A stretch of DNA of 48,218 nucleotides from an archaeon GW2011_AR19 (GCA_000806015.1 JWKY01000008.1:1-48218), one strand, 5' to 3'; shown: positions 556 to 39,564, counted from the first letter of the stretch. Made by a program: numbers and translations. The notes: generated from the sequence alone by a model not told the origin.

Positions 556-628
556 AGCAAAACATACCCTAAGGAAGGGCATAAAGGAAGTTTTCCATTA
601 TTCATTTAACAGGAAATAAAATGAATAA
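545..628 (+). repeat. Family A repeat (AAAGCAAAACAGGAAGTTTTCCA + hairpin TTATTCATTT..AAATGAATAA) carrying an extra ~21-nt hairpin insert
   Basis: Near-identical to 884-943 and 14993-15054 except for the insert ATACCCTAAGGAAGGGCATAA; AAAATGAATAA is present at both ends. Confidence 0.8.
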
Positions 629-7343: not shown

Positions 7344-7919
7344 ATGAAAAACAACGAGGAAGTTGAAAAATTAGCGAGAAAAATTATTTCTGAGTTAAAG
7401 CCTTTTTGCAAAAAAATTAAAATTGTTGGAAGCATTGGAAGACATGAAAAAAAACATGTTGATATTGATATTGTTTTAATCCCAAAAGACAGAAAGAAGC
7501 TTGAAGATTTTATGAAGACGCGGGGAAAATTTTTGCAGGGAGGAGAGCATGAGTCAACATGGAAAGTTAAATACGAACAAAAAACAGGAAATTTTTTGAC
7601 AAACTCTGCTCCCGACCTCGCACGAGCTATTGATAAAAAAATTTACTCTCTACCACGAAGTCGCTCGCCCAAACGTGGACGAGTTAAGGGAATTCAGATA
7701 GAACTTTATTACACTAATGAAAAAGAATGGGGAGCGGAATTGCTGGCTTATTCGTCGTCAAAAGGTTCTGCAATTGGATTAAGAGTTATTGCAAAGAAAA
7801 AAGGGCTTCATTTAACACAGCATGGTTTGTTTAAAGGAAAAAAAAGAATTGCCGGCAAAACTGAAAAAGAAATTTATAGAGCGTTGGGGAGAAAATACAA
7901 AAAACTTGAGGACAGATGA
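7344..7919 (+). CDS. Minimal DNA polymerase X-like protein (palm+thumb) with a 39-aa repeat-derived insertion
   Basis: IVGSIGR..DIDIVL and WGAELLAYSSSK..AKKKGLHLTQHGLF..EKEIYRALG motifs. Confidence 0.8.
   Translation: MKNNEEVEKLARKIISELKPFCKKIKIVGSIGRHEKKHVDIDIVLIPKDRKKLEDFMKTRGKFLQGGEHESTWKVKYEQKTGNFLTNSAPDLARAIDKKIYSLPRSRSPKRGRVKGIQIELYYTNEKEWGAELLAYSSSKGSAIGLRVIAKKKGLHLTQHGLFKGKKRIAGKTEKEIYRALGRKYKKLEDR
7565..7687. mobile_element. 117-bp in-frame composite repeat insertion (Family A + Family B parts) bounded by AGTTAA direct repeats
   Basis: AGTTAA at 7565 and 7682; contains AACAGGAAATTTTTT, CTCTGCTCCCGACC, AAGTCGCTCGCCC and CGCCCAAACGTGG. Confidence 0.75.
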
Positions 7920-10650: not shown

Positions 10651-11679
10651 ATGTCAATTATTTTAGGAATTGAATCAACAGCGCACACTTTTGGAATTGG
10701 AATTGTAAAAAATGGAAAAATTCTTTCAAATATTAAAAGCAGTTTTACAACTGAAAAAGGCGGGCTGATTCCCCTGGAAGTTGCTAAGCATCATCGGGAA
10801 AATAAAGAAAGAATTTATTTTGAATCTTTAGAAAAAGCAGGAATCAGCGAGGAGAAAATTGATGCAATTGCTTTTTCTCAGGGTCCTGGATTGGCTCCTT
10901 GTCTGCTTGAAGGAATAAAATTTGCAAAAGAGATTTCATTAAAATTAAAAAAACCAATTATTCCCGTGAATCATTGTGTTGCTCATCTTGAAATTGGTCA
11001 AATAACTGGTGCGAGAGATCCGGTCATGCTTTATGCTTCCGGAGCAAATACTCAAGTGATTGCTTATGCTTCTGGAAAATATAGGGTTTTTGGAGAAACT
11101 TTGGACATTGGCGTCGGTAATTTTATTGACACTTTTGCGCGCTACGCAGGAATTGGTTTTCCCGGAGGACCAGCAATAGAAAAATTATCTTTAACAGGAA
11201 AAACTTTAATTGAATTGCCTTACACAATCAAAGGAATGGATTGCGCTTTTTCAGGAATTTTAACTAATTTAAAACAAAAATTGGAATCTGGGTCCCCAAG
11301 GGATGACTCTGATGAGCCTTCTGGTGAGCCTAATTATAAATTATCTGATTTAGCATATTCAATGCAGGAAGTTGTTTTTGCAATGCTGGTTGAAACTGCA
11401 GAAAGAGCTTTGGCGCACACCGGAAAAAATGAATTGCTTTTAGGAGGAGGTGTTGCATGCAATTCAAGATTACAAGAAATGTGCAAAATAATGTGCGATG
11501 AAAGAGGGGCTAAATTTTTTGTTCCATCAAATGATTTATTAACTGATAACGGCAGTATGATCGCATATTTGGGTGAAATTTTATTTAAAAATAGAGATTT
11601 TATTCTAGCTAAAGATATTGATAAAGTAGACATAGCCCCACGTCAACGAACTGACGATGTAGAAATAAAATATAAGTGA
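10651..11679 (+). CDS. kae1: tRNA t6A threonylcarbamoyltransferase Kae1/TsaD
   Basis: GIESTAHT, GPGLAPCL, NHCVAHLE, GGGVACN, DNGSMIA. Confidence 0.95.
   Translation: MSIILGIESTAHTFGIGIVKNGKILSNIKSSFTTEKGGLIPLEVAKHHRENKERIYFESLEKAGISEEKIDAIAFSQGPGLAPCLLEGIKFAKEISLKLKKPIIPVNHCVAHLEIGQITGARDPVMLYASGANTQVIAYASGKYRVFGETLDIGVGNFIDTFARYAGIGFPGGPAIEKLSLTGKTLIELPYTIKGMDCAFSGILTNLKQKLESGSPRDDSDEPSGEPNYKLSDLAYSMQEVVFAMLVETAERALAHTGKNELLLGGGVACNSRLQEMCKIMCDERGAKFFVPSNDLLTDNGSMIAYLGEILFKNRDFILAKDIDKVDIAPRQRTDDVEIKYK
11293..11331 (+). repeat. Family C in-frame coding repeat (39-bp form, SPRDDSDEPSGEP)
   Basis: TCCCCAAGGGATGACTCTGATGAGCCTTCTGGTGAGCCT inside kae1. Confidence 0.9.
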
Positions 11680-12686
11680 GGCCAATGTGTTTTATCGAAT
11701 TGGATTAATCCTTCTTTTTTGAGTTTTGATAAATAATGATTAACTACTCTTTTGCTTTTTTTAAGATGATTAGCAAATTCCTCCGAGGTTACTTTTTTAT
11801 TCAATTTTTTTAATTCTTTTACATAAAATTCTTTATAGCTGTTTCTTGAAATCTGATTTCTTTTAAAACTACCCATAATCTCTTTCCAAGATTTCTCTTT
11901 TTTTGAATTATAGAACTTTATCCCTATTTCAGATAATTTATTAAAATCTTCCCATCCAGAAATATTTATTTCATATTCTTTATCATTATTTTTTCTAAAT
12001 TTACATCCAATGTCTATTTTATTTAATAATTCTGCCCACTGCTCTAAATATTTTTTGTTTCTCATTCTTACTCTTAATTTCCTGTATAATTGATAATGAT
12101 TAATTGAACCTTCACAATCTATTAACGCGCTAAATGCTGAAGCTATTAACTCGGTGTTTTTAGGAAGCATATATTCTCCTATTTCTAATTTCTTTTTATT
12201 AGCATATTTATCCAGAAATTCTAATAATTTTTTAGTTGGAAACCTTAAATCGCCATATGCCCAACATTCTAAATTTCCTTCACATATTATTTTATCTTTT
12301 AGGTATTTTATATTAATAAGATATATTCTATTATTATAGTTGATTGATATTTTATGATTTTTCTTATAAGGGAGGCTTGTAACAGCTTTTACTTTATTTT
12401 CATCAAAAGGGCTTTTTTCTATGTGAAAATTTAACTCTTTATTTTTCTCAATCAATTTCACCTCTTCTTTTTTTGTATTATTGTTCAGTCTTATTTTAAG
12501 TAATATTCTTTTTCCAACTTTCATACCTAAATTATTTGCTAGTTCTTCAATATGGTTTAGTAAAGGAAGGTCTTTATTCTGAATTGTTAAAGTAAAATTT
12601 TTTGATGACCAATATCCTTTTACTTTGAGTGCTTCAATTAAGTAAGCCGTGTCTTTATTTATCTTAATTTCTGAATAAGCAATCAT
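11643..12686 (-). CDS. Free-standing LAGLIDADG homing-endonuclease-like protein with C-terminal winged HTH
   Basis: SAFSALIDCEGSI motif, degenerate first motif TAYLIEALKVKGY, C-terminal SEEFANHLKKSKRVVNHYLSKLKKEGLI. Confidence 0.75.
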   Translation of the reverse strand: MIAYSEIKINKDTAYLIEALKVKGYWSSKNFTLTIQNKDLPLLNHIEELANNLGMKVGKRILLKIRLNNNTKKEEVKLIEKNKELNFHIEKSPFDENKVKAVTSLPYKKNHKISINYNNRIYLINIKYLKDKIICEGNLECWAYGDLRFPTKKLLEFLDKYANKKKLEIGEYMLPKNTELIASAFSALIDCEGSINHYQLYRKLRVRMRNKKYLEQWAELLNKIDIGCKFRKNNDKEYEINISGWEDFNKLSEIGIKFYNSKKEKSWKEIMGSFKRNQISRNSYKEFYVKELKKLNKKVTSEEFANHLKKSKRVVNHYLSKLKKEGLIQFDKTHWPHLYFISTSSVR

Positions 12687-12729
12687 AGCATAAATAGTCT
12701 ATTAATCTATTTAAATGTTGCTTTTTGAC

Positions 12730-12855
12730 GCAATGATTGGCTTCTTAGGAGAAATTATGTTCAAGAAAGGAATTAAATTTTCTCATAAAAATTTAGATGA
12801 AGTTGATATTTTACCGAGGCAAAGAACTGACGAAGTTCAAATTAATTGGAAATGA
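12730..12855 (+). pseudogene. Second, divergent copy of the kae1 3' end
   Basis: AMIGFLGEIMFKKGIKFSHKNLDEVDILPRQRTDEVQINWK* vs kae1 SMIAYLGEILFKNRDFILAKDIDKVDIAPRQRTDDVEIKYK*. Confidence 0.9.
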
Positions 12856-12896
12856 ACTTCTATTGTGATGGATTTTTTCAAGAATAAAAAATCCTA

Positions 12897-12929
12897 AGAA
12901 CCGACGACGTGGAAGTTTTTTGGAAATAA
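12897..12929 (+). pseudogene. Third, short copy of the kae1 extreme 3' end
   Basis: RTDDVEVFWK*, preceded by hairpin GGATTTTTT-CAAGAAT-AAAAAATCC. Confidence 0.7.
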
Positions 12930-12973
12930 ATAATAACAATAATATTTAAATATCTCATTTTTATTATTAAATT

Positions 12974-14971
12974 ATGAAAAAATTGGCGATAATCTTTGGA
13001 TTATTTTTATTAATGTCTGTTGCATTTGTTTCTGCGCATTATAATTCTGAAAATGATTTAGATAAAAACGGAAAAGTTTCTTTTAGCGAATGGATAAAAA
13101 ATATTTTTGGAAAAATTACTGGGAAAGCATTGGACCAACCTCAACAGGGACCTCTTCCTCTTTGCCTTGACAGCGACGGAGATGGTTATAACTCTACTAT
13201 TGGTGACGCGTGTGGGAGAGTTGTAGATTGCAATGACCTCAATAAGCTAATCTATCCTGGAGCTCCAGAGAATACCACTGCTCTTTGTTCGGACAATTTA
13301 GATAATGATTGTGATTTTGGAAAAGATTGCGCGGATTCTAATTGCAATTTAAAACTTAGTACAGGAGGAAAAACTTGTCAATATGGAACTGAGACAACTT
13401 GTAATGATGTTTTCGACAACGATGCTGATGGAAAAATAGATTGCGCTGATTCTGATTGTAGTTCTTCTTCTTCTTCTTCGTGTGTGCAAGTTGGTTGCGT
13501 GAATGGCGCTACCCAAATCTGCGGGACTACTGATGCTGGAGAGTGTAATAAAGGAGTTCAAACTTGCTCAAGTGGGCAATGGAGTGCTTGCGGAGGTGCT
13601 TATGTAGGTCCTGCAACAGAAATCTGCGGAAATAATATTGATGAGGATTGTAACGGGGTTGATTTGGTTTGTCCTATTACTGCTTGCACAGATACCGACG
13701 CTGGAATAAATTACACTATTGCAGGAAGCGCATATAATTTAACTTTTTTAAATTCTCCAAAACAAGATTATTGCATTAATAATACTCATTTAAATGAAAG
13801 TTCCTGCTCTGTAAATAATGCAGTTATTTCTCAACCTTATAATTGTAAATTATTAGGCGCTGCATATTCGTGCTCTCAAGGAGCATGCTCCTGCAACCCT
13901 ACTTATGTAAAATCCAGCTGTGCAAACGAAATCGCAGTTTTTGAAGACGCAAGCGCCTGTGGCGCTTCTGATTATACTGCGCCTTATGACTGCGACGGAA
14001 ACGGGGTAATTTCAAAACCTTCCTGCATTTCAACAACTGCTGACGTTTCAATAGGAGAAGGAATGGAATTTTTGCCTTTTGATAATTCAATAAATTATTC
14101 AGGCGCGGGTTCGCAAATAGTGCAGGTAGCAGAAGGTTATCAGGGAGTTGAATTTGACTGGAATTTTTCAGCTTCAGAAAAACTTGATTTTTGTGACATT
14201 GAAATTAAAACCTCTTCTCCAACAAATAACTTTGGTTATGTTTTGTTTAATTCAACTCAAAATATCTCCAATAAAATAGTTTATGTTGATAAATTAAATT
14301 CAAGTTCAGGAGCAGTTTGCATAAAAGATGTTTCCGGAGTTGTTTCAGTCAGTGAATTTAGTTCTAATTGTTCTGCAAGCAACGAAGTTTTATTGATATG
14401 TCCCTCCCCAAGGGATGACTCTGGTGAGCCTTCTCCGACTAATTCAATTTATAATTGTGATATTTCAGAGGATAATCTTACATTTATTGTTTGGCCTTTA
14501 AATCATTCTGCAGTTAAAGAGATGTTATCAATTACCGGATTAGTCAGCGACGGAACAGGATGTTTTGAAAATTGGAATTGCACCGAATGGTCTGACGCTG
14601 TTAATCAGTGCGGAACAAAAACTTGCAATGATTTAAATAATTGCGGGACAAATCTTTCAAGACCCTTAGAAATTAAAAGTTGTGTTTTGATTGGAGAGAC
14701 AGAAGGAGACGAATTTGAGACAGGCACAAGTGAAAGTCGGGAATCTAATACAAAATCTGTTCTTTTTATTATCCTTGGAATTGTCGGACTTATTTTAATT
14801 ATTTTTCTTATTTTGCATTTTATGAAAAGAGGAAAATCTGAAGAAGAATTTTCAGAGCCTCCAGCACACCATCAACAAACTCCTCCTCCAAGAAGTCTGC
14901 CTGCTCCTCCTCAAAACAGAGCAGTTCATCATAACCAATATCAACATACTCAGTTAGCTCCTCAGCGTTAG
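12974..14971 (+). CDS. Cys-rich surface protein with putative metal-binding (DxDGDG/DCND/DNDCD) repeats, C-terminal TM and Pro/Gln tail
   Basis: Signal peptide, DSDGDGY..DCNDLNKLIYPGAPE, EICGNNIDEDCNG, hydrophobic anchor. Confidence 0.8.
   Translation: MKKLAIIFGLFLLMSVAFVSAHYNSENDLDKNGKVSFSEWIKNIFGKITGKALDQPQQGPLPLCLDSDGDGYNSTIGDACGRVVDCNDLNKLIYPGAPENTTALCSDNLDNDCDFGKDCADSNCNLKLSTGGKTCQYGTETTCNDVFDNDADGKIDCADSDCSSSSSSSCVQVGCVNGATQICGTTDAGECNKGVQTCSSGQWSACGGAYVGPATEICGNNIDEDCNGVDLVCPITACTDTDAGINYTIAGSAYNLTFLNSPKQDYCINNTHLNESSCSVNNAVISQPYNCKLLGAAYSCSQGACSCNPTYVKSSCANEIAVFEDASACGASDYTAPYDCDGNGVISKPSCISTTADVSIGEGMEFLPFDNSINYSGAGSQIVQVAEGYQGVEFDWNFSASEKLDFCDIEIKTSSPTNNFGYVLFNSTQNISNKIVYVDKLNSSSGAVCIKDVSGVVSVSEFSSNCSASNEVLLICPSPRDDSGEPSPTNSIYNCDISEDNLTFIVWPLNHSAVKEMLSITGLVSDGTGCFENWNCTEWSDAVNQCGTKTCNDLNNCGTNLSRPLEIKSCVLIGETEGDEFETGTSESRESNTKSVLFIILGIVGLILIIFLILHFMKRGKSEEEFSEPPAHHQQTPPPRSLPAPPQNRAVHHNQYQHTQLAPQR
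14405..14431 (+). repeat. Family C in-frame coding repeat (SPRDDSGEP)
   Basis: TCCCCAAGGGATGACTCTGGTGAGCCT. Confidence 0.9.
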
Positions 14972-14992
14972 ATTCTTTTTAGATATTTTTTA

Positions 14993-15054
14993 AAATAAAT
15001 AAAGAAAACAGGAAGTTTTCATTATTCATTTAACAGGAAATAAAATGAATAAAG
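14993..15054 (+). repeat. Family A unit
   Basis: AAAACAGGAAGTTTTCATTATTCATTTAACAGGAAATAAAATGAATAAAG. Confidence 0.8.
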
Positions 15055-15153
15055 ATTTATAAAGCAACTTTTTCTTTACTAAATATCCAATGAGCGATTA
15101 AAAATTCGCGAGGAATTTTTAATTGTTCTTATAACTAAATAGAAATAAAACCA

Positions 15154-15215
15154 AAATGAAAGCAAAAACAGGAAATTTTTGTATTCATTCAAATTTCAGG
15201 AAAAAATTTAAATGA
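15154..15215 (+). repeat. Family A unit supplying the L7Ae ATG
   Basis: AAATGAAAGCAAAAACAGGAAATTTTTGTATTCATTCAAATTTCAGGAAAAAATTTAAATGA. Confidence 0.8.
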
Positions 15216-15517
15216 CTGACATATATCAAATTATTGAAAAGGCAAGAAAGACCGGAAAAATAGAAAAAGGAACTAATGAAGTTACCAAAGCTATTGAAAG
15301 AGGAACTGCAAAATTAGTTGTTTATGCTTCTGATGTTGAGCCAAAAGAAATTGTTCAGCATCTGCCAGTTTTGTGCAAAGAAAAAAAGATTTTATGCAAA
15401 GAAGTTGATAGCAAGCAAAAATTAGGAATTGCAGCAGGTTTGCCTGTTTCAGCATCTTCTCTTGTTGTTATTGAATCCGGCGACGCTGAAAAAGAAATTG
15501 TTGCTCTGAAAAAATAA
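15212..15517 (+). CDS. rpl7ae: 50S ribosomal protein L7Ae
   Basis: KGTNEVTKAIERGTAKLVV.A.DVEP.EIV.HLP.LC. Confidence 0.95.
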   Translation: MTDIYQIIEKARKTGKIEKGTNEVTKAIERGTAKLVVYASDVEPKEIVQHLPVLCKEKKILCKEVDSKQKLGIAAGLPVSASSLVVIESGDAEKEIVALKK

Positions 15518-15622
15518 ATTTTTTTAAGATAAAAATATAATTTAACCAAATGAAAAACAAATTATCAAATACAAAAATTTTTAATAGGAAAATAACAAAG
15601 GAGTTGTTAATAATTTTATAAA

Positions 15623-15931
15623 ATGGGCGGAAGTTCAAAACAACAAAAACAAAAAGAAGATAAACAGCAGCAGCAATCTTCAAAAGGAAGCGAGAGAATT
15701 GTTTTAGGAGAAGCTGTGCCGGCTCTTGTAGAAGAGATTTTAGGAAGGACTGGTTTTAGAGGAGAAGTTACACAAGTTAAGTGTCTTGTTCAGGAAGGCA
15801 AGGATCAGGGACGGTCAATGAGGAGAAATTTAAAAGGGCCTGTGAGAGTTGGAGATGTTTTAATGCTTAGAGAAACAGAAATTGAGGCTCGTAGAATCAA
15901 ACCAAAAGTAACAAAGGGGGCTTATACATGA
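15623..15931 (+). CDS. rps28e: 30S ribosomal protein S28e with Gln/Lys-rich N-terminal extension
   Basis: [37 protein letters not shown]. Confidence 0.92.
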
Positions 15932-16170
15932 TAATTGATTTAGAAATTCCAACAATAGAAAATGGAAAAATTAATTTTTCTAAATTAGAATCTGAATTAG
16001 GAAAGTTTTTTTGCAATGATCCGGAAAATGTTTATGTTAATGTGATGGGAAAAGATAAATTTCTTGTAAAAGAAGTAATGGATAATTTACAACCTTCTTT
16101 TGATTATAAAATTCTTGGAATAGGAAGAAGAAAAGATAATTATTTAATTAAAGTTGGAGCTAAAATATAA
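15928..16170 (+). CDS. hypothetical protein within the r-protein operon
   Basis: ATGA-coupled to rps28e; 80 aa. Confidence 0.6.
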
Positions 16171-16171
16171 A

Positions 16172-16336
16172 ATGCCAATCTGTTTTTATTGCAAAAAAGA
16201 ATATGATATTCATAGGGGTTTGACTTTTATTTTAGCTGACGGAACAATAAAGCATTTATGTTCCTCAAAATGCAGAAAAAATATGCATATGAAAAGAAGA
16301 AAAGTTCGTTGGATTTCTAAGAAGAAAAAAGAATAA
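16172..16336 (+). CDS. rpl24e: 50S ribosomal protein L24e
   Basis: CFYC..G..DG....LCSSKCRKN..RW; start ATG 16172. Confidence 0.9.
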   Translation: MPICFYCKKEYDIHRGLTFILADGTIKHLCSSKCRKNMHMKRRKVRWISKKKKE

Positions 16337-16467
16337 ATTGCTCACTTCATTTGGATTTATTTATAATTTTACTTTAAACAATTTAATTAAAGTATTAACC
16401 TCATTCTCAATCTTTGCTGTTAGGATAATCTTCTTAATTTCTGCGAGTGAAACGAGCAAGTATTTTT
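16336..16467. repeat. Family D ~130-bp dispersed repeat
   Basis: Shares GGATTTATTTATAAT and TTAATTTCTGCGAG..CA(A/G)GTATTTT with 27539-27675; a similar start occurs at 48190-48218. Confidence 0.65.
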
Positions 16468-16545
16468 AAAAGGAGATATATTCTTGTTTAAAGCAATATT
16501 TAAAAGGTTACCCTACCTAAATTTTTTAGAAATAAAAGGGGTGGT

Positions 16546-18747
16546 ATGGTGTATAAAAAGTATATTAAAAGAGGGGGTAAGTTATTTGGTCCGTATTATT
16601 ATAGAAGTATAAAAAAAGGCGGTAAGGTAATTACTCAATATGTTAAAAACCCAAACGATTTTCCCAAAAAAAAGTTTTCAATTGGCTATAAAAAGATTAA
16701 TAAAAATTTCTTAATTTTGCCGATACTCTTTTTAATTTTAATTGCAGGTTTCTTTATTCTTAAGCCCGTTTTAACCGGTAAGGTAATTCTTTCTGTTGAT
16801 AATTCTTATGTTTCTCAGGAAGCTCTTTTTGGCGAACTAAAGCTGAATTTAGAGCCAAATGAATTTATTCCTGCAGATACAAAAGTTTTAATTAACAATG
16901 AAGAATTTATTTTAAGAAATTTAATAAAAGAAATTCCAAAACCGGGAGAATTTTATGTTTCTGGAACAGAAATTTCCGGGAAAGGAGAGGGCTATGGTTC
17001 AGGAAATCCGGAAGTTTTTTTTGTTTTGAATATTTTGTCTGAGAAAGAGAAGGATAAAGAAATTTCTAAGGGAATTTTAGAAAATGAAACAACAGAATCT
17101 AATGAAGCTGAAGAAGAAACAGAAACAATAGAATCTAATGAAACTAAAGAAGAAATTCCTGCAGAAATAACAACTTCTGAAATTCCTGAAACTGAAGAAT
17201 CCCCAAGGGATGACACTGGTGAGCCTCAAACACCAATAGAAGAAATAGAAGAGACAACTCCGGCAACAGGGCAAATAATTTTGAATTTTTTTAATAAAAT
17301 ATTTTTGACAATTACAGGAAAAACTGCTCTTGAAAATGTTAATGAAGTTTCAGGAAGAGTTTCTAAAGACAAGCCAATTGTTTATGCGCTTGAACAGGGT
17401 CAGACAGCTGAAATAAAAAATTCAAATGAAAAAGTAAATTTGGAAATAATAAACAATACAGCGACTATAACAACGGATTATTCAGGCGAGAGGGCGGAAT
17501 ATTTGATAAATTTGTCTGAATTAAATATTCTTACAGGACAAAATGAATTTGAAATTAAATTAATTTACAACGACACTGAATTTGCTTCTATAGTTAAAAA
17601 TGTTAAATTTGAAAGCAATGAAACAAATATTACCGGGAGCAGTGTGATTTTTGAAAATCTTACAGAAGAGATAATTCAGCATACAGCAATTGCAGGAAAG
17701 CCGGTAAAATGGACAAAAAAAATAAAAGCAGATAGTCGGGAAACAAATGTTCTGCTTCCAAAAGAGGCAGAAAATATTTCGATTTATAAATTGGAGAATA
17801 CAATTGCTGCGGATTTGAATAATTCAATAACCGGAAGTTTGATTTTAAGTTATGAAAAAGAAAATCCTGGTTTTTTTAATAGATTATTTGCTTTTATTAC
17901 AGGAAGAGCAGTAGAGATTATTGAAAGGCAGGAAGAAATTGAAATTAATATCAGCGAAAATGCAAATAGTGATTATGAAATTGAATATTTTACTCCCGGA
18001 CCTGAAATTACAGAAAAAAATATTTCTAATGGAAAAGAGATTGTAATTTCTTCTGAAGTTAATTATGAAAACATTTTAGCATATACGGCTCTTCCCGAGA
18101 ATATTAATTTAGAAGAAATTAAACTTTATCATAAAATAAATGGTTCTACACCCGACGGTGTATCCTCTGGTGAGGTAAGAGTTTTAGTGGATTTTATTGC
18201 TTATACCGAAGACAATAAAATTGTAGAAAATGAAAATGATTTAGATGATGATGTTTTGAATGAAATTGAAAATAAAGTTTTGAAAAAAGAAGAAAATGAA
18301 ATTATGGAAAATAAATCTTTGGATAAACCATACAGGAATATAATTTATGGAGAAGAAATCCAAGAGAAATTAGATTATCAAATTAAAAAAATAAGAACAG
18401 AAAGCAAAGAAAAAGTTTCTTATATTGAATGGATTGTTCCGCATTTGTCAAATCAGACTTATGAACTTATTTTAATTTCAAAAGCAGAACATCTTGACGA
18501 AAATAAAACTTTTATTGAAGATGTTTATGAGCAGGTAAAAGAAAGAGATGGCAATTTTACAAACGAAATTCCTGCAAAACATTACATCAGAGTAACTTTT
18601 GAAAAAAATCTGACAAATGAAAATGATATTACAATTTATGCAAAGGCGGGCTGCAATGGCTCCATAAAAATAAATGAAATAGATGTTCCTTGCGAGATTT
18701 ATGAAAAGAAAATGAGGCTTGATTCCTTAAGAGGTGAAAATGGATAA
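16546..18747 (+). CDS. Large membrane-anchored acidic surface protein
   Basis: Basic N-terminus, TM, repeated (I/L)TG(K/R/S) motifs, Glu/Thr-rich linker. Confidence 0.75.
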   Translation: MVYKKYIKRGGKLFGPYYYRSIKKGGKVITQYVKNPNDFPKKKFSIGYKKINKNFLILPILFLILIAGFFILKPVLTGKVILSVDNSYVSQEALFGELKLNLEPNEFIPADTKVLINNEEFILRNLIKEIPKPGEFYVSGTEISGKGEGYGSGNPEVFFVLNILSEKEKDKEISKGILENETTESNEAEEETETIESNETKEEIPAEITTSEIPETEESPRDDTGEPQTPIEEIEETTPATGQIILNFFNKIFLTITGKTALENVNEVSGRVSKDKPIVYALEQGQTAEIKNSNEKVNLEIINNTATITTDYSGERAEYLINLSELNILTGQNEFEIKLIYNDTEFASIVKNVKFESNETNITGSSVIFENLTEEIIQHTAIAGKPVKWTKKIKADSRETNVLLPKEAENISIYKLENTIAADLNNSITGSLILSYEKENPGFFNRLFAFITGRAVEIIERQEEIEINISENANSDYEIEYFTPGPEITEKNISNGKEIVISSEVNYENILAYTALPENINLEEIKLYHKINGSTPDGVSSGEVRVLVDFIAYTEDNKIVENENDLDDDVLNEIENKVLKKEENEIMENKSLDKPYRNIIYGEEIQEKLDYQIKKIRTESKEKVSYIEWIVPHLSNQTYELILISKAEHLDENKTFIEDVYEQVKERDGNFTNEIPAKHYIRVTFEKNLTNENDITIYAKAGCNGSIKINEIDVPCEIYEKKMRLDSLRGENG
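17200..17226 (+). repeat. Family C in-frame coding repeat (SPRDDTGEP)
   Basis: TCCCCAAGGGATGACACTGGTGAGCCT. Confidence 0.9.
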
Positions 18748-20083
18748 AAAAGAAATTAATTTTATTTTGGAAGAAGGAGAAGGATTGAAAATAGAGTTTA
18801 AAGAGAGTTTTGACTCAAAAAACCTATCTAAAGAACTTGTTGCCTTTGCAAATTCTGAAGGCGGGAAAATATTTTTAGGAATCAGCGATAAGAAAGAAAT
18901 AAAAGGCATTGATGTTAACAATAAATTAAAATCTCAAATTCAAGATATTGCGAGGAATTGCGAACCTCAAATTAAAATTAATTTTGAAGAATTTGAAAAT
19001 CTTTTGATAATAAATGTTTTTGAAGGAAAAGACAAGCCTTACAAATGTTCTTCAGGATTTTATTTGAGGCAGGGTCCAAATTCCCAGAAATTAACAAGAA
19101 ATGAGATTTTATATTTTGCAGTAAATCTTGGAAAAATTAAATTTGATGAACAAATAAATGAAAATTTTAAATTTCCTAAAGATTTTGATAAAAACAAATT
19201 TAACTCTTTTTTGAAGAAAAGCAACATTTCAAAGATGAATAATTCTAAAAATGTTCTAATAAATTTATCTGTTGCTGTTAAATCAGGTAAAAATATTCAA
19301 TTGAACAATGCTGGAATTTTATTTTTTGGAAAAAACATCCCTAAATTCATCAGGCAGAATTTTACAACTTGTGTTTTGTATAAAGGCAAAGAAAGAGTGA
19401 ACGTAATAGACAGGAAGGATTTTAATGAAGATTTAATCAGCAATTATGAAAATTCTCTTAAATTTTTAAAACAGCATTTAAAATTAGAATATATTATTAA
19501 GGGAGGAGGACCAAGGCAGGAAATTTTAGAGGTTCCAGAAGAAGCATTAAAGGAAGCTTTGTTAAACGCACTGGCTCATAGAGATTATTTTGAAAGCGGG
19601 GCTGGAATTTTTGTTGAAATTTTTGATGATAGAATTGAAATTTATAATAAAGGCAAACTGCTTTTTGATAAAAAAGATTTGGGAAAAATAAGTTTATCAA
19701 GAAATCCGATTTTATTTGATTTATTTCATAGAATAAATTTAATTGAGAAAATCGGTTCTGGAATAGGAAGAATAAAAAAATTAATCAAAGAAAGAAAATT
19801 AAAAGTTAGTTTTGAGAGCAATGAATTTTTTAGAATTATTTTTGAGAGGTCAAAAATTAGCCAGGAGAAAACTGTGGAGAAAACTGTGGAGAAAACTGTG
19901 GAGAAAATATTAGATATAATTCATAAAAATCAAAAAATAACGCAGGAAGAATTAGCTGAAAAAACGGGGTTGTCAAGAAGAGGGATAGAATGGAATATAG
20001 AAAAATTAAAACAAGAAGGCAAAATAAAAAGGATAGGTCCTGACAAAGGCGGTTCTTGGGAAATTTTAAAAAATGAAAAATAA
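18740..20083 (+). CDS. Schlafen/AlbA_2 domain + HATPase-like + C-terminal HTH protein
   Basis: GEGLKIEFKES, VAFANSEGG, EALLNALAHRDY, RNP, IEKIGSGI, HTH..GPDKGGSW. Confidence 0.88.
   Translation: MDKKEINFILEEGEGLKIEFKESFDSKNLSKELVAFANSEGGKIFLGISDKKEIKGIDVNNKLKSQIQDIARNCEPQIKINFEEFENLLIINVFEGKDKPYKCSSGFYLRQGPNSQKLTRNEILYFAVNLGKIKFDEQINENFKFPKDFDKNKFNSFLKKSNISKMNNSKNVLINLSVAVKSGKNIQLNNAGILFFGKNIPKFIRQNFTTCVLYKGKERVNVIDRKDFNEDLISNYENSLKFLKQHLKLEYIIKGGGPRQEILEVPEEALKEALLNALAHRDYFESGAGIFVEIFDDRIEIYNKGKLLFDKKDLGKISLSRNPILFDLFHRINLIEKIGSGIGRIKKLIKERKLKVSFESNEFFRIIFERSKISQEKTVEKTVEKTVEKILDIIHKNQKITQEELAEKTGLSRRGIEWNIEKLKQEGKIKRIGPDKGGSWEILKNEK
19864..19907 (+). repeat. 12-bp tandem repeat x3.7 (EKTV)
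   Basis: GGAGAAAACTGT repeated. Confidence 0.9.
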
Positions 20084-23000
20084 AATAAAAAATTTAACAA
20101 TATTTGGAATAATATTAATTTCTATTTTCTTATTTATATTTTTAGCAAGCGCATTAACTCCGCAGGAAGAGATTGCGCAATTAGAAAACGAATTAAACAG
20201 CGCGGGTTATGATTGGCTCGTTAACTATTCCCTAAGGGATGACCCTCATGGGCCTAATTTAACTTATCCTAGAGTTGAAGTTTATGAGAAAGATAAGAAT
20301 GATACAATTGCAACTTTTGAAAAAATCAGCGAAGACAAGGAATATAAAATTTATCTGACAAATCTAAATGGAAGCCAGAACACTTTTGATTTGAAAGTTT
20401 TTTCCCCAAGGGATGACTCTGGTGAGCCTGGAGGAAGTGTTTGGTTTGATTATATTGTTGACCCGATTATTCTCGGAAATGCCAATTCAGTAAATACAAA
20501 CACAACTTATGAAAACAACTTCACGCACTTAAACGTCTCAAATTCATCAATAATTGCATATTATCCTTTTGATGTTAATAATAATTCTGATGGAATAACT
20601 TATGATTATACAGACAAGAATAATGATGGAGTTAAAATGACTGGAGTAACTTTTAACAATACTGGATGTATTTATGGAAATTGTTATACTTTTAGAGGTT
20701 CTGATGCCAGTAATCTTACTCTTCCTAATGGCGCAGGAGTTTATGGTTCATCTCCAAGAACACTGTCTGTATGGGTAAAAACAACAGATACTTTTGGAGC
20801 ATTTTGGGCTTATGGAAATAGAAATGCAAATACTGAGGAATTTACATTATTTATAAACAGCGGTTCAACTATATTGCTTAAAATTCAAGGAGCGGGAATG
20901 ATTCAATGGCCAACTTCTAACGTTCTAAATGGAAATTGGCATAATGTTGTTTTAACTTATAATGGAAGCACAATTAATAATTCTGAATTATATTTAGATG
21001 GAGTTAAATTAGTCAGAACTGAACTTACTGTAGGAACTCCAAACACTCAACCTAAATTCTTTATACTTGGCATGGCTCAATATGCGGGGTATGAATTTGC
21101 AGGAGAATTAGATGAATTTATGGTTTGGAATACTGCTTTAACCGCTGACGAAGTTTTAGCGATTTACAACAACCAAACAAATAGATTTTTTCCAACAGGA
21201 ACAATGAATTGGACGGGTGTGAATTTTGCAGGAAATGATACAATAAATATAACTTTGCAGGGTTGTCAGCAAAACATGGGAAGCTCTTTGAAAGCAAGTG
21301 TCAATGACGGGGCTTTTGTTGCATTTGACAGCAATTGTTTTATTCAGGATTACAATGCAACAGGAGATTTAAATTCTGCAAATGTGACAATTCAATTTCT
21401 TGCAGGAACAAATAATTTTTACACTCCGTTGGTAATTGGGAATTTGAGTTTGGATAATAGAGATGCAATTTTCCCGCAAATCTCTTTCAAATCCCCGACG
21501 CCTGCAAATGGAACTATCAGCTCAGACAATAATTCAATCATCATAAATACTTCTATAACTGAATTAAATTTAAATACGGCAAAATTTAATTGGAACGGAA
21601 CTAATTTCACGATTTTCAATGATTCAACAGTTTTGCATTTGGGTTTGAATAATTTTTCAGCAATTGGAGAAAACGGAACTCGTGTTGTGGATGTTTCAAA
21701 ATATGAAAATCACGGAACACCTAATGGGGCATTTTTTAATAGCACAGGAGGATTTTATGGCGGAGGTTATACTTTTGACGGCGTGAATGATTTTATTAAT
21801 GTTAGCGACCCTTCAAGTCTTAATATAACTGGCAAAATAACAGTTGCGTCTTGGATTAAACTTTCAGCATCTCAACTTAATGCACCCATTGTAGCAAGAT
21901 GGGGGAGCGACCAAAGTTATTTGCTGGGTGTAGACTATGTGACTGCTAATAAGATTATATTTGGAATTAGAGTTTCTGAGGTGTCTAAAACTGCAACTTC
22001 AACAAATACTTATAATGATGGGAAATGGCATCAAGTTGTTGGTGTTTTTAATGGAACAAATGTTTTGCTTTATATTGATGGAGGAGCAGAAGCGGTAACA
22101 GGAAGTGCAACAACAGGACCTATTGATGGACCCGCAAATAATGTTTTTATTGGAAGTTATAATTCCCTTGGTAATTTTTTCAACGGCTCAATAGATGAAG
22201 TCCGTATTTTTGACAGAGCTTTATCTGCAAACGAGGTTACACAATTGTATATGTCAAATTTGCAAAAGTTAAATAATACAGATTGGCTTCTTTATGTTAA
22301 TCAGACAAAGCATAATTCAACAACTGGTTTAGGCAACGGGCAATATACTTATTTCTCAACTGCTATAGATACGGCAGGAAATGAAAATTCAACTGAAACA
22401 AGGACAATAACTTTAGATACAACAAATCCAACTTTTACCTGGAACTCGCCAACACCCGCAGACAAAACATTTTCGTCAAGTAATTCTTCATATTTGAATG
22501 CAACAATTACCGACGCCAGTAATACTTCAGCATGGTTTGACTGGAACAAATCAGTTAAAGGATATTGGGCAATGGATTTCAGAAACTCAACAGATGTTTT
22601 TGATAATTCAACATACAGCAACTTTGGAACAATTTCAGGAGCAGTAGCAAACATTTCAGGAAAACGCGGGGATTCTTTTACTTTTGATGGTGTGAATGAT
22701 TTAATAAATATTAATACAGCAGTTGGTGATTTGGCTGCAACAACTAAAGGAACTTGGAGTGCTTGGGTTAAACCTGTTGATGCAACGCCTACGGCTCAAG
22801 ATGAAATTATTGCATTTGCTAATGGTGATCAGACAGATATGATACATCTTATGATAGATATAACGACTGGAAATTTTCGGATAAATGCTATAAATAATGG
22901 GGCAGCATTGTGGCAAGTGGCTACCGACGTTGCTCCTTTTTCTGATAATACCTGGACCCAGATTGCATTAGTTCAAGACGGGGTTTCGCCAGTTTTGTAT

Positions 23001-24143
23001 GTTAATGGTGTTGCTCCAGCACAAACTTTTTCAATTTCAACTGATAAAACTATTTGGTTTAATAATTTGGTAATGAATAATGGAAGAATAGGGACAAGGT
23101 TTTGGGATGCAACAGAAGGAGATGGAGGACTTCCTTTTAACGGAAATATTGACGAAGTCTTAATTTTTGACAGAGCTCTTTCAGCAAATGAAATAAAAGC
23201 ATTATATGACACAAGTGCAGTAAATAATATTTTACAAAATAATTTCACATCTTTGTCAAATGCAAAATATAATTATTCAGTTTATGCAATTGATGATGCA
23301 GGAAATCTTAACTGGACTTCACCAGATAGGCAGTATACTGTTGATACAACCAATCCGACAATTTCCTACAATGCCCAAACACCAACAGATAATTCAACAA
23401 TTAATTCAAATTCAATTTATGTGAATGTTTCAGTTTCAGATACAAACTTTGAAAATATGACTTATTATTTATATAATGAAACTTTAAATGTTTCAAAGTT
23501 AGTCGGATATTGGAATTTTGATAGAAATACTACAAGTGTTCGGGATTTGTCGGGAAACAAAAATGACGGAACAAGAAACGGGGGAGTTAATTGGACGACG
23601 GGGGGAAAATTAGACAGTGGATTTAGTTTTGATGGTGTGGATGATTTTATTGAGAGAAATAATGCAGTAATCAGCGGGACCCCTGCAACTTTTAGTGCTT
23701 GGATAAATCTAAAGAGTTTAGGTGTAAATCAAAGAATAGTTACAATAAATCCAAAATCTGCAGGTAACAGTGCATTATCCATATTTGTTGATACAGCTAA
23801 TAAAGCCAGTGCACAACATTATGATACAGATGGTGCAGTAGCAACAGGCACAACTACTTTGACAACTAATACTTGGTATCATATAGTTGGGGTTTTTGCA
23901 AGTGATTCCTCAAGAACAATCTATGTAAATGGTGTTTCACAAAACACAAATACGGGAGTTCAATCTGCAATGAGCGGATTAAATTATACTTCTATTGGCG
24001 ATATTGCTTGGAGCACTGGAAATATTCAGTTTTTCAACGGCTCAATAGACGAACCAATGATTTTTAACAGCGCTTTATCAGCGACAGAAGTTTCAGAATT
24101 ATATAACAGAGGTTTGGTAAATCACACAACTTATTCAAATTAG
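20073..24143 (+). CDS. Giant LamG (concanavalin-like) surface protein, part 1 (signal peptide + 4 LamG domains)
   Basis: Repeated FDGVND..SAW(I/V)K..W.H....LY.NG..FNG.IDE..IF..ALS..E; many N-x-S/T sequons. Confidence 0.9.
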   Translation: MKNKIKNLTIFGIILISIFLFIFLASALTPQEEIAQLENELNSAGYDWLVNYSLRDDPHGPNLTYPRVEVYEKDKNDTIATFEKISEDKEYKIYLTNLNGSQNTFDLKVFSPRDDSGEPGGSVWFDYIVDPIILGNANSVNTNTTYENNFTHLNVSNSSIIAYYPFDVNNNSDGITYDYTDKNNDGVKMTGVTFNNTGCIYGNCYTFRGSDASNLTLPNGAGVYGSSPRTLSVWVKTTDTFGAFWAYGNRNANTEEFTLFINSGSTILLKIQGAGMIQWPTSNVLNGNWHNVVLTYNGSTINNSELYLDGVKLVRTELTVGTPNTQPKFFILGMAQYAGYEFAGELDEFMVWNTALTADEVLAIYNNQTNRFFPTGTMNWTGVNFAGNDTINITLQGCQQNMGSSLKASVNDGAFVAFDSNCFIQDYNATGDLNSANVTIQFLAGTNNFYTPLVIGNLSLDNRDAIFPQISFKSPTPANGTISSDNNSIIINTSITELNLNTAKFNWNGTNFTIFNDSTVLHLGLNNFSAIGENGTRVVDVSKYENHGTPNGAFFNSTGGFYGGGYTFDGVNDFINVSDPSSLNITGKITVASWIKLSASQLNAPIVARWGSDQSYLLGVDYVTANKIIFGIRVSEVSKTATSTNTYNDGKWHQVVGVFNGTNVLLYIDGGAEAVTGSATTGPIDGPANNVFIGSYNSLGNFFNGSIDEVRIFDRALSANEVTQLYMSNLQKLNNTDWLLYVNQTKHNSTTGLGNGQYTYFSTAIDTAGNENSTETRTITLDTTNPTFTWNSPTPADKTFSSSNSSYLNATITDASNTSAWFDWNKSVKGYWAMDFRNSTDVFDNSTYSNFGTISGAVANISGKRGDSFTFDGVNDLININTAVGDLAATTKGTWSAWVKPVDATPTAQDEIIAFANGDQTDMIHLMIDITTGNFRINAINNGAALWQVATDVAPFSDNTWTQIALVQDGVSPVLYVNGVAPAQTFSISTDKTIWFNNLVMNNGRIGTRFWDATEGDGGLPFNGNIDEVLIFDRALSANEIKALYDTSAVNNILQNNFTSLSNAKYNYSVYAIDDAGNLNWTSPDRQYTVDTTNPTISYNAQTPTDNSTINSNSIYVNVSVSDTNFENMTYYLYNETLNVSKLVGYWNFDRNTTSVRDLSGNKNDGTRNGGVNWTTGGKLDSGFSFDGVDDFIERNNAVISGTPATFSAWINLKSLGVNQRIVTINPKSAGNSALSIFVDTANKASAQHYDTDGAVATGTTTLTTNTWYHIVGVFASDSSRTIYVNGVSQNTNTGVQSAMSGLNYTSIGDIAWSTGNIQFFNGSIDEPMIFNSALSATEVSELYNRGLVNHTTYSN
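20229..20255 (+). repeat. Family C variant (SLRDDPHGP)
   Basis: TCCCTAAGGGATGACCCTCATGGGCCT, 22/27 identical to the consensus. Confidence 0.8.
20403..20429 (+). repeat. Family C in-frame coding repeat (SPRDDSGEP)
   Basis: TCCCCAAGGGATGACTCTGGTGAGCCT. Confidence 0.9.
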
Positions 24144-39361: not shown

Positions 39362-39564
39362 GGCTCTGTTGAAAATCTAAATTTTTTTAGTTTTGAGTTC
39401 AAATAACTCCCGACCCCGATTTCTACCTTTTACAAATAGCCTTCGGAATTAATTGAAATCAAAGTCGCTCGCCCACTCCACCTCGATTATCGTTGAAACC
39501 CGCCCTTTATTTTTACGATGAATTTCCAAAGAAGTTACGAACTCAAAACTTTTTCAACAGAGCC
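39362..39564. mobile_element. 203-bp MITE with IS5/IS903-like ends and 9-bp target duplication
   Basis: TIR GGCTCTGTTGAAAA/TTTTCAACAGAGCC; TGTATTTAA on both flanks (39353-39361, 39565-39573); contains a Family B repeat. Confidence 0.9.

Follow-up and report, generated by a model that had tools for sequence, protein, structure and literature searches.

A contig of the archaeon GW2011_AR19 (GCA_000806015.1, JWKY01000008.1:1-48218) carries five copies of a 27-nucleotide (nt) sequence inside unrelated protein-coding genes, all in one frame, which raises the question of what this sequence is and how it came to lie there. The contig, 48,218 nt long and analyzed over its whole length (the window), is numbered C8 among the 20 contigs of a 678-kb assembly (genome G000) with a G+C (GC) content of 30%, a completeness of 74.5%, and a predicted coding density of 88%. 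The 27-mer is best read as the minimal representative of a family of tiny GC-rich repeats with a modular build in AT-rich, gene-dense DPANN archaea. The leading explanation overall, which we hold tentatively, is a selfish or neutral DNA micro-repeat that is translated and filtered by protein tolerance, and for which we prefer a transposase-free mode of copying.

The sequence, TCCCCAAGGGATGACTCTGGTGAGCCT, occurs exactly at two places in the window (14405..14431 and 20403..20429), with one change at 17200..17226 and at 11293, and with five changes at 20229..20255. A further 12-nt unit (11320-11331) follows the copy at 11293 and extends it to a 39-nt form (11293..11331). All five copies are on the + strand, within long + strand open reading frames (ORFs), and share one frame. 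The 39-nt form lies in the gene of Kae1/TsaD (342 amino acids [aa]; 10651..11679, + strand; Pfam TsaD, E 2e-77) and reads SPRDDSDEPSGEP. The exact copy at 14405 reads SPRDDSGEP in a 665-aa Cys-rich protein (12974..14971, + strand), in which Pfam finds a MopE metal-binding motif only. The copy at 17200, whose T16>A change produces an A.A mismatch in the second of the two stems described below, reads SPRDDTGEP in a 733-aa protein without a Pfam family (16546..18747, + strand). The two remaining copies share a 1356-aa protein with several Laminin_G_3 domains (the LamG protein; 20073..24143, + strand): the diverged copy, near the N terminus, reads SLRDDPHGP, and the consensus copy at 20403 reads SPRDDSGEP. 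Sixteen of the 27 bases are G or C, compared with 30% in G000; TGA closes frame +2 alone, and the remaining five frames are open. No match to the 27-mer was found in 100 shuffles. An initial annotation of the window had listed these five copies and the 39-nt form, had placed all of them inside coding sequences, and had described the element as GC-rich on an AT-rich background with five of six frames free of stops; the ORF and Pfam analysis agrees with it on the placement, and the other points stand as well.

That the copies are insertions is indicated by a comparison of syntenic regions in three genomes of the same genus (G001-G003) and one genome of another genus (G008). Exactly the 13 codons of the 39-nt form are absent from Kae1 of G001, G002, and G003, where a clean in-frame empty site is found, and exactly 9 codons are absent, with a clean gap, from the Cys-rich protein of the same three genomes. 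In the LamG protein of G003, a clean gap stands in place of the 9 codons contributed by the copy at 20403. Around the copy at 17200, the sequence is acidic and of low complexity, and the 9-residue gap that G001 shows there falls in a loose part of the alignment. The reverse case, in which relatives are filled and G000 is cleanly empty, is found in G000 genes at C3:25715, C12:30639, C7:49257, C11:28453, and C8:35315. Presence and absence of the element turn over between relatives, and no target duplication is seen at the aligned junctions of filled and empty sites (Kae1, the Cys-rich protein, LamG, and the relatives' sites). The clean insertion in Kae1 and the lack of a clear target duplication, both proposed in the initial annotation, are thereby confirmed, the former by the 13 codons missing from three same-genus orthologues; alignment with close orthologues, which it had suggested as a check, yields empty sites for Kae1, the Cys-rich protein, and the 20403 copy of LamG. 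In an AlphaFold2 model of Kae1 (7-sequence alignment, mean predicted local distance difference test [pLDDT] score of 74), the insert is placed in a coil between helices 200-212 and 231-257 at low confidence (pLDDT 56-62).

Kae1 was also surveyed in 80 metagenome loci chosen by Kae1 homology alone, together with G000, counting internal inserts of at least 4 residues. No internal insert is present in 52/81 sequences, 29/81 have at least one, and modules of the type described here are found in 8/81, at two different sites. About four hot spots collect the inserts of Kae1 as a whole: one follows HLEIG, one precedes PVMLY, one follows LAL.S, and one is the SG^NYK loop. In different relatives, these hot spots hold other GC-rich hairpin families, for example ..AP(Q/K)(V/A)YPEKSSSKISTKG.. 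and ..APKGVP..GTRTSNEVP.. (orthologues L025, L026, L028, and L081; metagenome loci L130, L136, L154, L155, L158, L160, L166, L179, L196, L200, and L208).

Beyond the window, the degenerate pattern TCCNNNNNGGATGACNCTNNTGNGCCT has 15 matches in G000. It is present in 5 of 41 genomes, namely G000, 3/3 others of its genus, and 1/21 others of its family, and in 0/16 genomes drawn from the order's other families; with the reversed control, no match was obtained in any of these genomes, including G000, nor in 1.09 Mb of related DNA. In a contig collection with one genome per species, 89 stretches have the pattern, of which 80 were listed as loci. Among the matches listed, 62 loci have a GC content of at most 0.45 and come from about 30 assemblies of different studies, nearly all archaeal. 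The titles of these low-GC carrier assemblies are Pacearchaeota, Woesearchaeota, Nanoarchaeota, or archaeon, with one Patescibacteria. The other 18 listed loci are from high-GC bacteria, mostly lack stem complementarity, and were left out of all counts (GC cutoff of 0.45). The public collection may contain the same genomes as G001-G003 and G008, and the two sets may therefore overlap. The viral contigs of IMG/VR gave 3 chance-like hits, none with stem complementarity. In the assembly titled Patescibacteria, a 37% GC contig has a well-formed copy (L102:5031-5057) in which the first stem is switched to G:C; it may reflect mis-binning or transfer.

A short, GC-rich sequence with near-identical copies could arise as an adapter, a chimera, or another artefact of assembly. 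Because about 30 assemblies from many studies carry it, an assembly artefact is excluded for practical purposes, and we give this explanation almost no credence: the copies are also found on metagenome contigs picked by Kae1 homology alone, lie in frame, include compensatory variants, and occupy orthologous positions.

A genome-wide search in G000 resolved the 27-mer into two modules. Module A (15 nt) consists of the hairpin TCCC-CAA-GGGA, with a 4-bp stem, followed by TGAC. Module B (12 nt), together with the last C of module A, forms C-N-C/TGGT/G-N'-G, with a 3-bp stem, followed by CCT. The Kae1 array is accordingly A-B'-B, with module A at 11293-11307, B' (one loop change) at 11308-11319, and B at 11320-11331. 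The opening mini-hairpin had already been recognized in the initial annotation, which missed the second hairpin, the 15+12 build, and the compensatory changes, as well as the nested or expanded arrays and the longer composite forms. Minimum-free-energy and centroid folds both give two separate hairpins with a 3-nt linker. We examined covariation in 40 distinct 27-mers, with at most six changes each, from 1.09 Mb of DNA (G000 and the 62 low-GC public loci). The 40 variants differ from one another only in the two loops and in three of the 7 stem pairs, and in these three pairs both sides change (4:8 is CG, UA, GC, or UG; 16:23 is UA, CG, AU, GC, GU, or UG; 17:22 is CG or UA). Paired states make up 98.2% of 280 cells, compared with 88.5% in shuffles, and none of 500 shuffles is as high. 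Double changes are found in 29 cells, against 7.2 expected; the covariation score was reached by 0/500 shuffles, and slid registers all score far lower. Columns G9-T12, A14, and C15 do not vary at all and G13 hardly varies, a stretch that includes the unpaired linker T12-A14. The 20229 copy has its second stem switched to CCC/GGG and keeps 7/7 pairs. A scan of five loci with composite arrays against Rfam returned tRNAs only and no family for the element. A likeness of GGATGA...CTGA to a kink-turn or box C/D motif was considered by eye and dropped, as the register differs between variants of module A.

Copies are either well preserved or missing from the spectrum of mismatches: 90 have 0-5 changes and none has 6, and the matches at 7-8 changes are nearly all windows across A-A junctions within arrays. 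A search by synteny does bring up decayed copies: in L129, the closest metagenomic Kae1, the same site as in G000 has an AT-shifted copy with 8 changes that retains 7/7 stem pairs, two of them wobbles.

The initial annotation held that the element always has the same strand and frame and always encodes an SPRDDSGEP-type peptide. This is true of the window and does not hold genome-wide, where all five open frames and antisense copies are found. G000 has 17 arrays: sense arrays in frame 0 account for 11 of them, antisense arrays for 4 in frame -1 (GSPESSLG) and 1 in frame -0, and the last one is probably intergenic. Across relatives, 84 arrays assigned by strict criteria comprise 42 in frame +0, 13 in -1, 4 in -2, 2 in +1, 1 in -0, and 22 that are unclear; the frame with TGA is used by 0/84, and about 18 of 62 clearly placed arrays are antisense. 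Both +1 copies (L050 and L070) lie in N-terminal, hydrophobic, signal-like segments and read ...PQRMTLLCLLVSL.... Besides Kae1 and LamG, the hosts include a class II aminoacyl-tRNA synthetase, SecD/F, a P-type ATPase, LigT, and GATase. At a coding density of about 88%, mostly genic placement needs no special targeting. Orientation matches neither the direction of neighboring genes nor 10-kb GC skew, and the idea that the element marks a replication strand was rejected for that independence.

To what extent the nucleotides or the peptide are conserved can be read from three orthologous sites that are filled in several genomes, which allow 8 pairwise comparisons. The 90 flanking bases are 57-80% identical at these sites, with 8-18 of 30 third codon positions identical, whereas the element is 89-100% identical, with 9/9 third codon positions identical in all 8 pairs. 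The differences within the element are all non-synonymous (P/Q, G/A, E/G, and PR/SK), and they either lie in loops or are wobble or compensatory changes. The encoded peptide varies accordingly (SPRDD, SSKDD, or SQRDD; SGEP, TAVP, AAAP, or PRGP). It is the DNA sequence that is conserved, not the encoded peptide. Because third positions are invariant and the differences change residues, peptide-level selection is ruled out as the main constraint. A portable SPRDDSGEP module selected at the protein level, one of the possibilities raised in the initial annotation, could draw on the single frame of all five window copies and on +0 being the commonest frame (42/84 arrays). Yet synonymous positions stay fixed where residues vary, four other frames are used, about 18/62 placed arrays are antisense, and the hosts are both cytoplasmic and surface proteins; we regard a peptide tag as very improbable.

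The same conservation is what would be expected of a functional structured cis-element, acting as RNA or single-stranded DNA and kept by selection in place, with the peptide as a by-product. We consider this unlikely, though it retains real weight. Such an element could be a protein binding site, with two predicted mini-hairpins and the invariant GGATGAC and GCCT. Consistent with it are the 9/9 third positions in all 8 orthologous pairs beside flanks at 8-18/30, differences that change residues yet fall in loops or are wobble or compensatory, the constancy of the unpaired A11-T12 and A14 (and nearly of G13) among the 40 variants, the excess of pairing over all 500 shuffles (98.2% versus 88.5%), and the 7/7 pairs retained by the diverged copies at 20229 and in L129. 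On the other hand, the element can be dispensed with: relatives of the same genus have the same housekeeping genes without it, and 52/81 Kae1 sequences have no insert. The arrays antisense to their hosts (about 18/62) are equally well kept, which argues against an mRNA signal, and orientation is unrelated to neighboring gene direction or GC skew. The stems have marginal stability (z of +0.6 to -1.8) and no Rfam match, ascertainment favors conserved copies, and correction of quasi-palindromes could mimic covariation.

The open frames bear on a further possibility raised in the initial annotation, a micro-intron: the 27 nt would be cut from the mRNA by the splicing endonuclease, or the ribosome would skip them. 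DPANN archaea carry many tRNA introns, and ribosomes in mitochondria skip byp elements of 27-55 nt. In G000, aragorn predicts introns in 8 of the 25 tRNAs called, and the first hairpin of the element is a 4-bp helix with a 3-nt linker after it. The anatomy nevertheless argues against removal. Two separate hairpins form, with flanks that are unrelated between sites, and no bulge-helix-bulge (BHB; 3-4-3) can form, and on these grounds an archaeal BHB intron was rejected. Modules of 15 and 12 nt, a host frame that is open in every ORF array, and an unused TGA frame are not required by removal, and antisense copies are common. A byp element was likewise rejected, as all ORF copies are readable in the host frame and no matching take-off and landing codons are present at Kae1 or LamG. 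Splicing or bypass thus appears improbable from the anatomy of the element, less so than the peptide tag or the artefact, and all three are unlikely.

How the family may grow is suggested by its arrays. Among 86 arrays, 61 are AB, 9 AABB, 7 ABB, 2 AAB, and 2 AA, with one each of A7B3, ABAB, ABABAB, ABA, and ABABB. A 54-nt form, A-A'-B'-B (SPRDD-SSKDD-TAVP-SGEP), recurs in several genomes at sites that have no relation to one another. Where a site is shared, A-B in one genome can correspond to A-[A'B']-B in another, with the additional 27 nt lying exactly at the junction of A and B (for example, the G000 gene at C3:37025 compared with L076, and C9 compared with L092), and five different arrays occupy the Kae1 site in G000, G008, L050, L079, and L081. 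In longer composites, A and B enclose additional hairpin modules that are GC-rich, such as ...GAGAACCTGC-AA-GCAGGTGAC; examples are an 87-nt form in the LigT gene of G000 (C11:32090-32176) and those in L064, L081, L083, and L099. The 3' flank begins with TC in 25/82 arrays, compared with a background of 5.9%, and both modules start with TC; the bias would be explained by microhomology in the return step or by leftover pieces of additional modules. No fixed target site was found, the upstream flanks of the 82 arrays being diverse. The LigT/2H phosphoesterase gene (C11:31898-32560; L121) has two arrays, of 87 nt and 54 nt, one after each H-x-T motif region, in roughly equivalent places of the two halves of the fold.

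We screened the five carrier genomes (G000-G003 and G008; 72-93% complete, with G000, G001, and G003 at 72-77%, so that an enzyme may have been missed) for seven families: Y1_Tnp, PF07282, RVT_1, Cas1, rve, DDE_Tnp_1, and IS110. None is common to the five carriers, and none of the seven was found in G000, G001, or G003. Y1_Tnp is present in 0/4 genomes of the genus; G008 has it, as do 10 relatives without the pattern. PF07282 (the TnpB/Cas12f nuclease-domain family), Cas1, and IS110 are each found in 0/5 carriers. RVT_1 is in G008 alone among the five, and rve and DDE_Tnp_1 are in G002 alone (200 contigs, 6% contamination). One tyrosine recombinase each is present in G000, G003, and G008. A search for a co-occurring HUH/Y1 transposase or reverse transcriptase, as the initial annotation had advised, thus yields no candidate shared by the carriers.

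These screens bear most directly on the possibility that the 27-mer is an ends-only miniature transposon, with module A as the left end, module B as the right end, and nothing between them, moved in trans by an enzyme that acts on single-stranded DNA. An enzyme of the IS200/IS605 (HUH/Y1) kind or an equivalent would account for unlike end hairpins, the lack of target duplication, and precise excision. Several features agree with this: the hairpins at the two ends are unlike, with no terminal inverted repeat; empty sites are clean and without duplication; longer forms keep A on the left and B on the right around a variable middle (G000 C11:32090-32176, L064, L081, L083, and L099); and copies are intact or not seen at all (90 at 0-5 changes, none at 6). 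Against it, Y1_Tnp was not found in G000-G003 (72-93% complete) and is present in 10 pattern-free relatives, PF07282 is in 0/5 carriers, no conserved 4-5-nt target precedes the left end, upstream flanks being diverse, the stems have just 4 and 3 bp, and IMG/VR gave only the 3 chance-like hits. Overall, movement by an enzyme in trans seems to us rather unlikely, and it keeps real weight as a rival nonetheless.

We propose that units of the favored micro-repeat insert cleanly, leave no target duplication, and are free as to place, orientation, and frame. With about 88% of the genome coding, most units would land in genes and be transcribed and translated with the host protein, and copies would survive only where the frame stays open and the added peptide fits. 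The surviving readings would then be mostly the hydrophilic +0 (SPRDDSGEP) and -1 (GSPESSLG) ones in loops and linkers, with the hydrophobic +1 reading in signal-like segments. Existing units may be preferred targets, with new units or modules arriving at or beside the junction of A and B; such growth would give the A-A'-B'-B, A-B-B, and A7-B3 arrays and composites that keep A on the left and B on the right. As the mechanism, we prefer a process without a transposase, in which an existing array is copied through template switching or repair synthesis: hairpins would stall the polymerase, and short homologies would guide entry and return. The same hairpins may promote the clean loss of units, and stems may persist either through hairpin-templated correction or because copies propagate only when intact. 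Such a transposase-free copy mechanism would fit four observations: the missing enzymes, the absence of duplication, the junctions at module boundaries, and the TC bias. The suggestion, made in the initial annotation, of a minimal mobile element tolerated as a hydrophilic loop thus largely stands, given the empty sites, the turnover, the five frames, and the Kae1 loop, with two qualifications: it is from the distribution that we infer mobility, and the +1 frame is hydrophobic and seen only in N-terminal hydrophobic segments.

Several points weigh against this proposal. The 9/9 third positions kept where the flanks are saturated (8-18/30) look like selection in place, and the 8-change copy of L129, with its 7/7 pairs, resembles the product of such selection more than a young selfish copy; reinsertion or ascertainment could be the explanation instead. 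Most copies were recovered by a pattern that fixes 19/27 bases, which biases the sample toward conserved copies. The cells of the covariation analysis are related copies, counted as copies and not as independent events, and the structure tested was read off the very same sequences. Folding energy is no better than in shuffles (z of +0.6 to -1.8), and the stems are marginal as free structures; the case for structure thus rests on covariation and not on stability. The TC bias could instead reflect remnants of decayed B modules. We infer translation with the host from open frames and 3n module lengths alone. Finally, genomes that are 72-93% complete and a test of seven families leave room for a missing enzyme. 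A combination of the two ideas has only a minor chance of being right in our view: the modules would be a new class of intragenic, structure-bearing nucleic acid signal in DPANN archaea, with two mini-hairpins and the invariant GGATGAC and GCCT, selected in place over long periods and spreading by transposase-free, hairpin-guided copying at their own A/B junction. If that were true, this would be the smallest among the self-propagating DNA units described from cellular genomes.

Two more GC-rich repeat families lie in frame inside G000 genes, which suggests that the 27-mer is one case of a wider habit. One, TACCCTAAGGAAGGGCATAAA (reading YPKEGHK), has 13 copies, of which 8 are genic and 7 of those 8 are in one frame; the other, a hairpin family AACTCG-CCCAAGCGTGG-TCGAGTT (reading ..LTNSPKRGRVKE..), has 12 copies, 8 of them genic. 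Their copies in the window (563-596 and 860-909) are both intergenic. G000 also has, in at least about 30 places, GC-rich boxes that come in pairs, ..CTCCCGACC(T/C)C.. with ..CGAGCGACTTCG.., and enclose an AT-rich spacer; in the window they lie at 2493-2581, 7605-7671, and 39402-39477, and they are mostly intergenic (25/34 and 23/32 copies). Some 120-240 nt downstream of complete tRNA genes, the last 13-18 nt of the gene, T-loop through discriminator base, occur again as a direct repeat (G000 C7:28813-29070, C7:51881-52151, and C9:10786-11125; L086:5047-5290; L060:2454-2730). The stretch between a tRNA and its repeat ends in A-B units in L086 and L060 and has other repeat families in G000, and these structures look like tiny integrated elements, or their remnants, at the 3' ends of tRNA genes. 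Elsewhere in the window, a short tandem repeat, GGAGAAAACTGT x3, lies at 19864-19898, near the end of a 449-aa ORF (18734-20083), and the intergenic stretches at about 15145-15220 and 16336-16472 recur, 82-97% identical, on many contigs of G001-G003.

If the micro-repeat reading is right, essential genes of reduced archaeal genomes, among them those of Kae1, an aminoacyl-tRNA synthetase, SecD/F, and a P-type ATPase, are being remodeled by DNA units of 12-27 bases. These units are far smaller than any described MITE (miniature inverted-repeat transposable element) or Rickettsia palindromic element (RPE), and no recognizable transposase accompanies them. They would offer a tractable case for the spread of short hairpin repeats, for the gain of loops by proteins, and for the many lineage-specific inserts of DPANN proteins. 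For annotation and phylogenomics, the relevance is that marker proteins such as Kae1 bear unrelated inserts, at about four hot spots and in 29/81 orthologues. Conserved nucleotides together with a variable peptide also make a function at the nucleic acid level a testable possibility.

Searches of the literature outside subscription journals, by topic and by encoded peptide, found no description of the element. RPEs and the coding palindromes of Methanocaldococcus jannaschii, named as analogues in the initial annotation, are apt as to the way of working and not as to membership. The coding palindromic repeats of M. jannaschii are archaeal, have coding potential inside genes, and are larger. They share with the present element an archaeal host and an intragenic, coding position, and as described they are set apart by their size.

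Several other classes can be set aside, since the element fails the defining tests for a MITE, an IS200/IS605 derivative, a BHB intron, and a byp element. A MITE was rejected because there are no terminal inverted repeats (the reverse complement of module B is unlike module A), no target duplication, and no parent insertion sequence transposase among the seven families in G000, G001, and G003 (72-77% complete). With IS200/IS605 ends, repetitive extragenic palindromes (REPs), and palindrome-associated elements, it shares unlike end hairpins, the lack of terminal inverted repeats and of target site duplication, and clean loss. It differs from them in having no fixed or conserved target of 4-5 nt, no Y1 or RAYT enzyme found in the genus, and much shorter stems; REPs, moreover, are extragenic. 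BHB introns and byp elements are likewise very short insertions in genes (12-55 nt), but they are removed or skipped and need no frame, whereas here the host frame stays open across every ORF array and no BHB is found.

According to one account (PMC10969869), RPEs have a length of about 150 bp and a conserved peptide per family, and lie in frame in unrelated and often essential genes. Like them, the element is a dispersed, selfish-looking, in-frame repeat in unrelated protein genes, of a kind thought to be translated and tolerated on the protein surface. It differs in its length of 27 nt rather than 100-150 bp, its 15- and 12-nt modules, its use of five frames, its archaeal host, and the conservation of nucleotides rather than of a peptide. 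AT-rich mitochondrial genomes provide a second parallel: another report (PMC4478555) describes clusters of GC-rich hairpins (such as yeast GC42) with loop-biased variation, merger and shuffling of units, and a mechanism left open. The likeness extends to GC-rich hairpin units in a compact AT-rich genome, changes in loops, merger and shuffling, turnover of presence and absence, and the lack of any known element-encoded enzyme. The mitochondrial clusters, as described there, are mostly intergenic, with a putative AG target duplication, and belong to organellar genomes; the present element is mostly intragenic and in frame, shows no duplication, and resides in a cellular archaeal genome. It appears to work still more like the mitochondrial GC clusters and double-hairpin elements of fungal mitochondrial DNA than like RPEs. 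Its mode would thus resemble those of known in-frame selfish repeats and GC hairpin clusters, and a 27-nt, 15+12 modular unit in archaea appears to be new among the literature searched.

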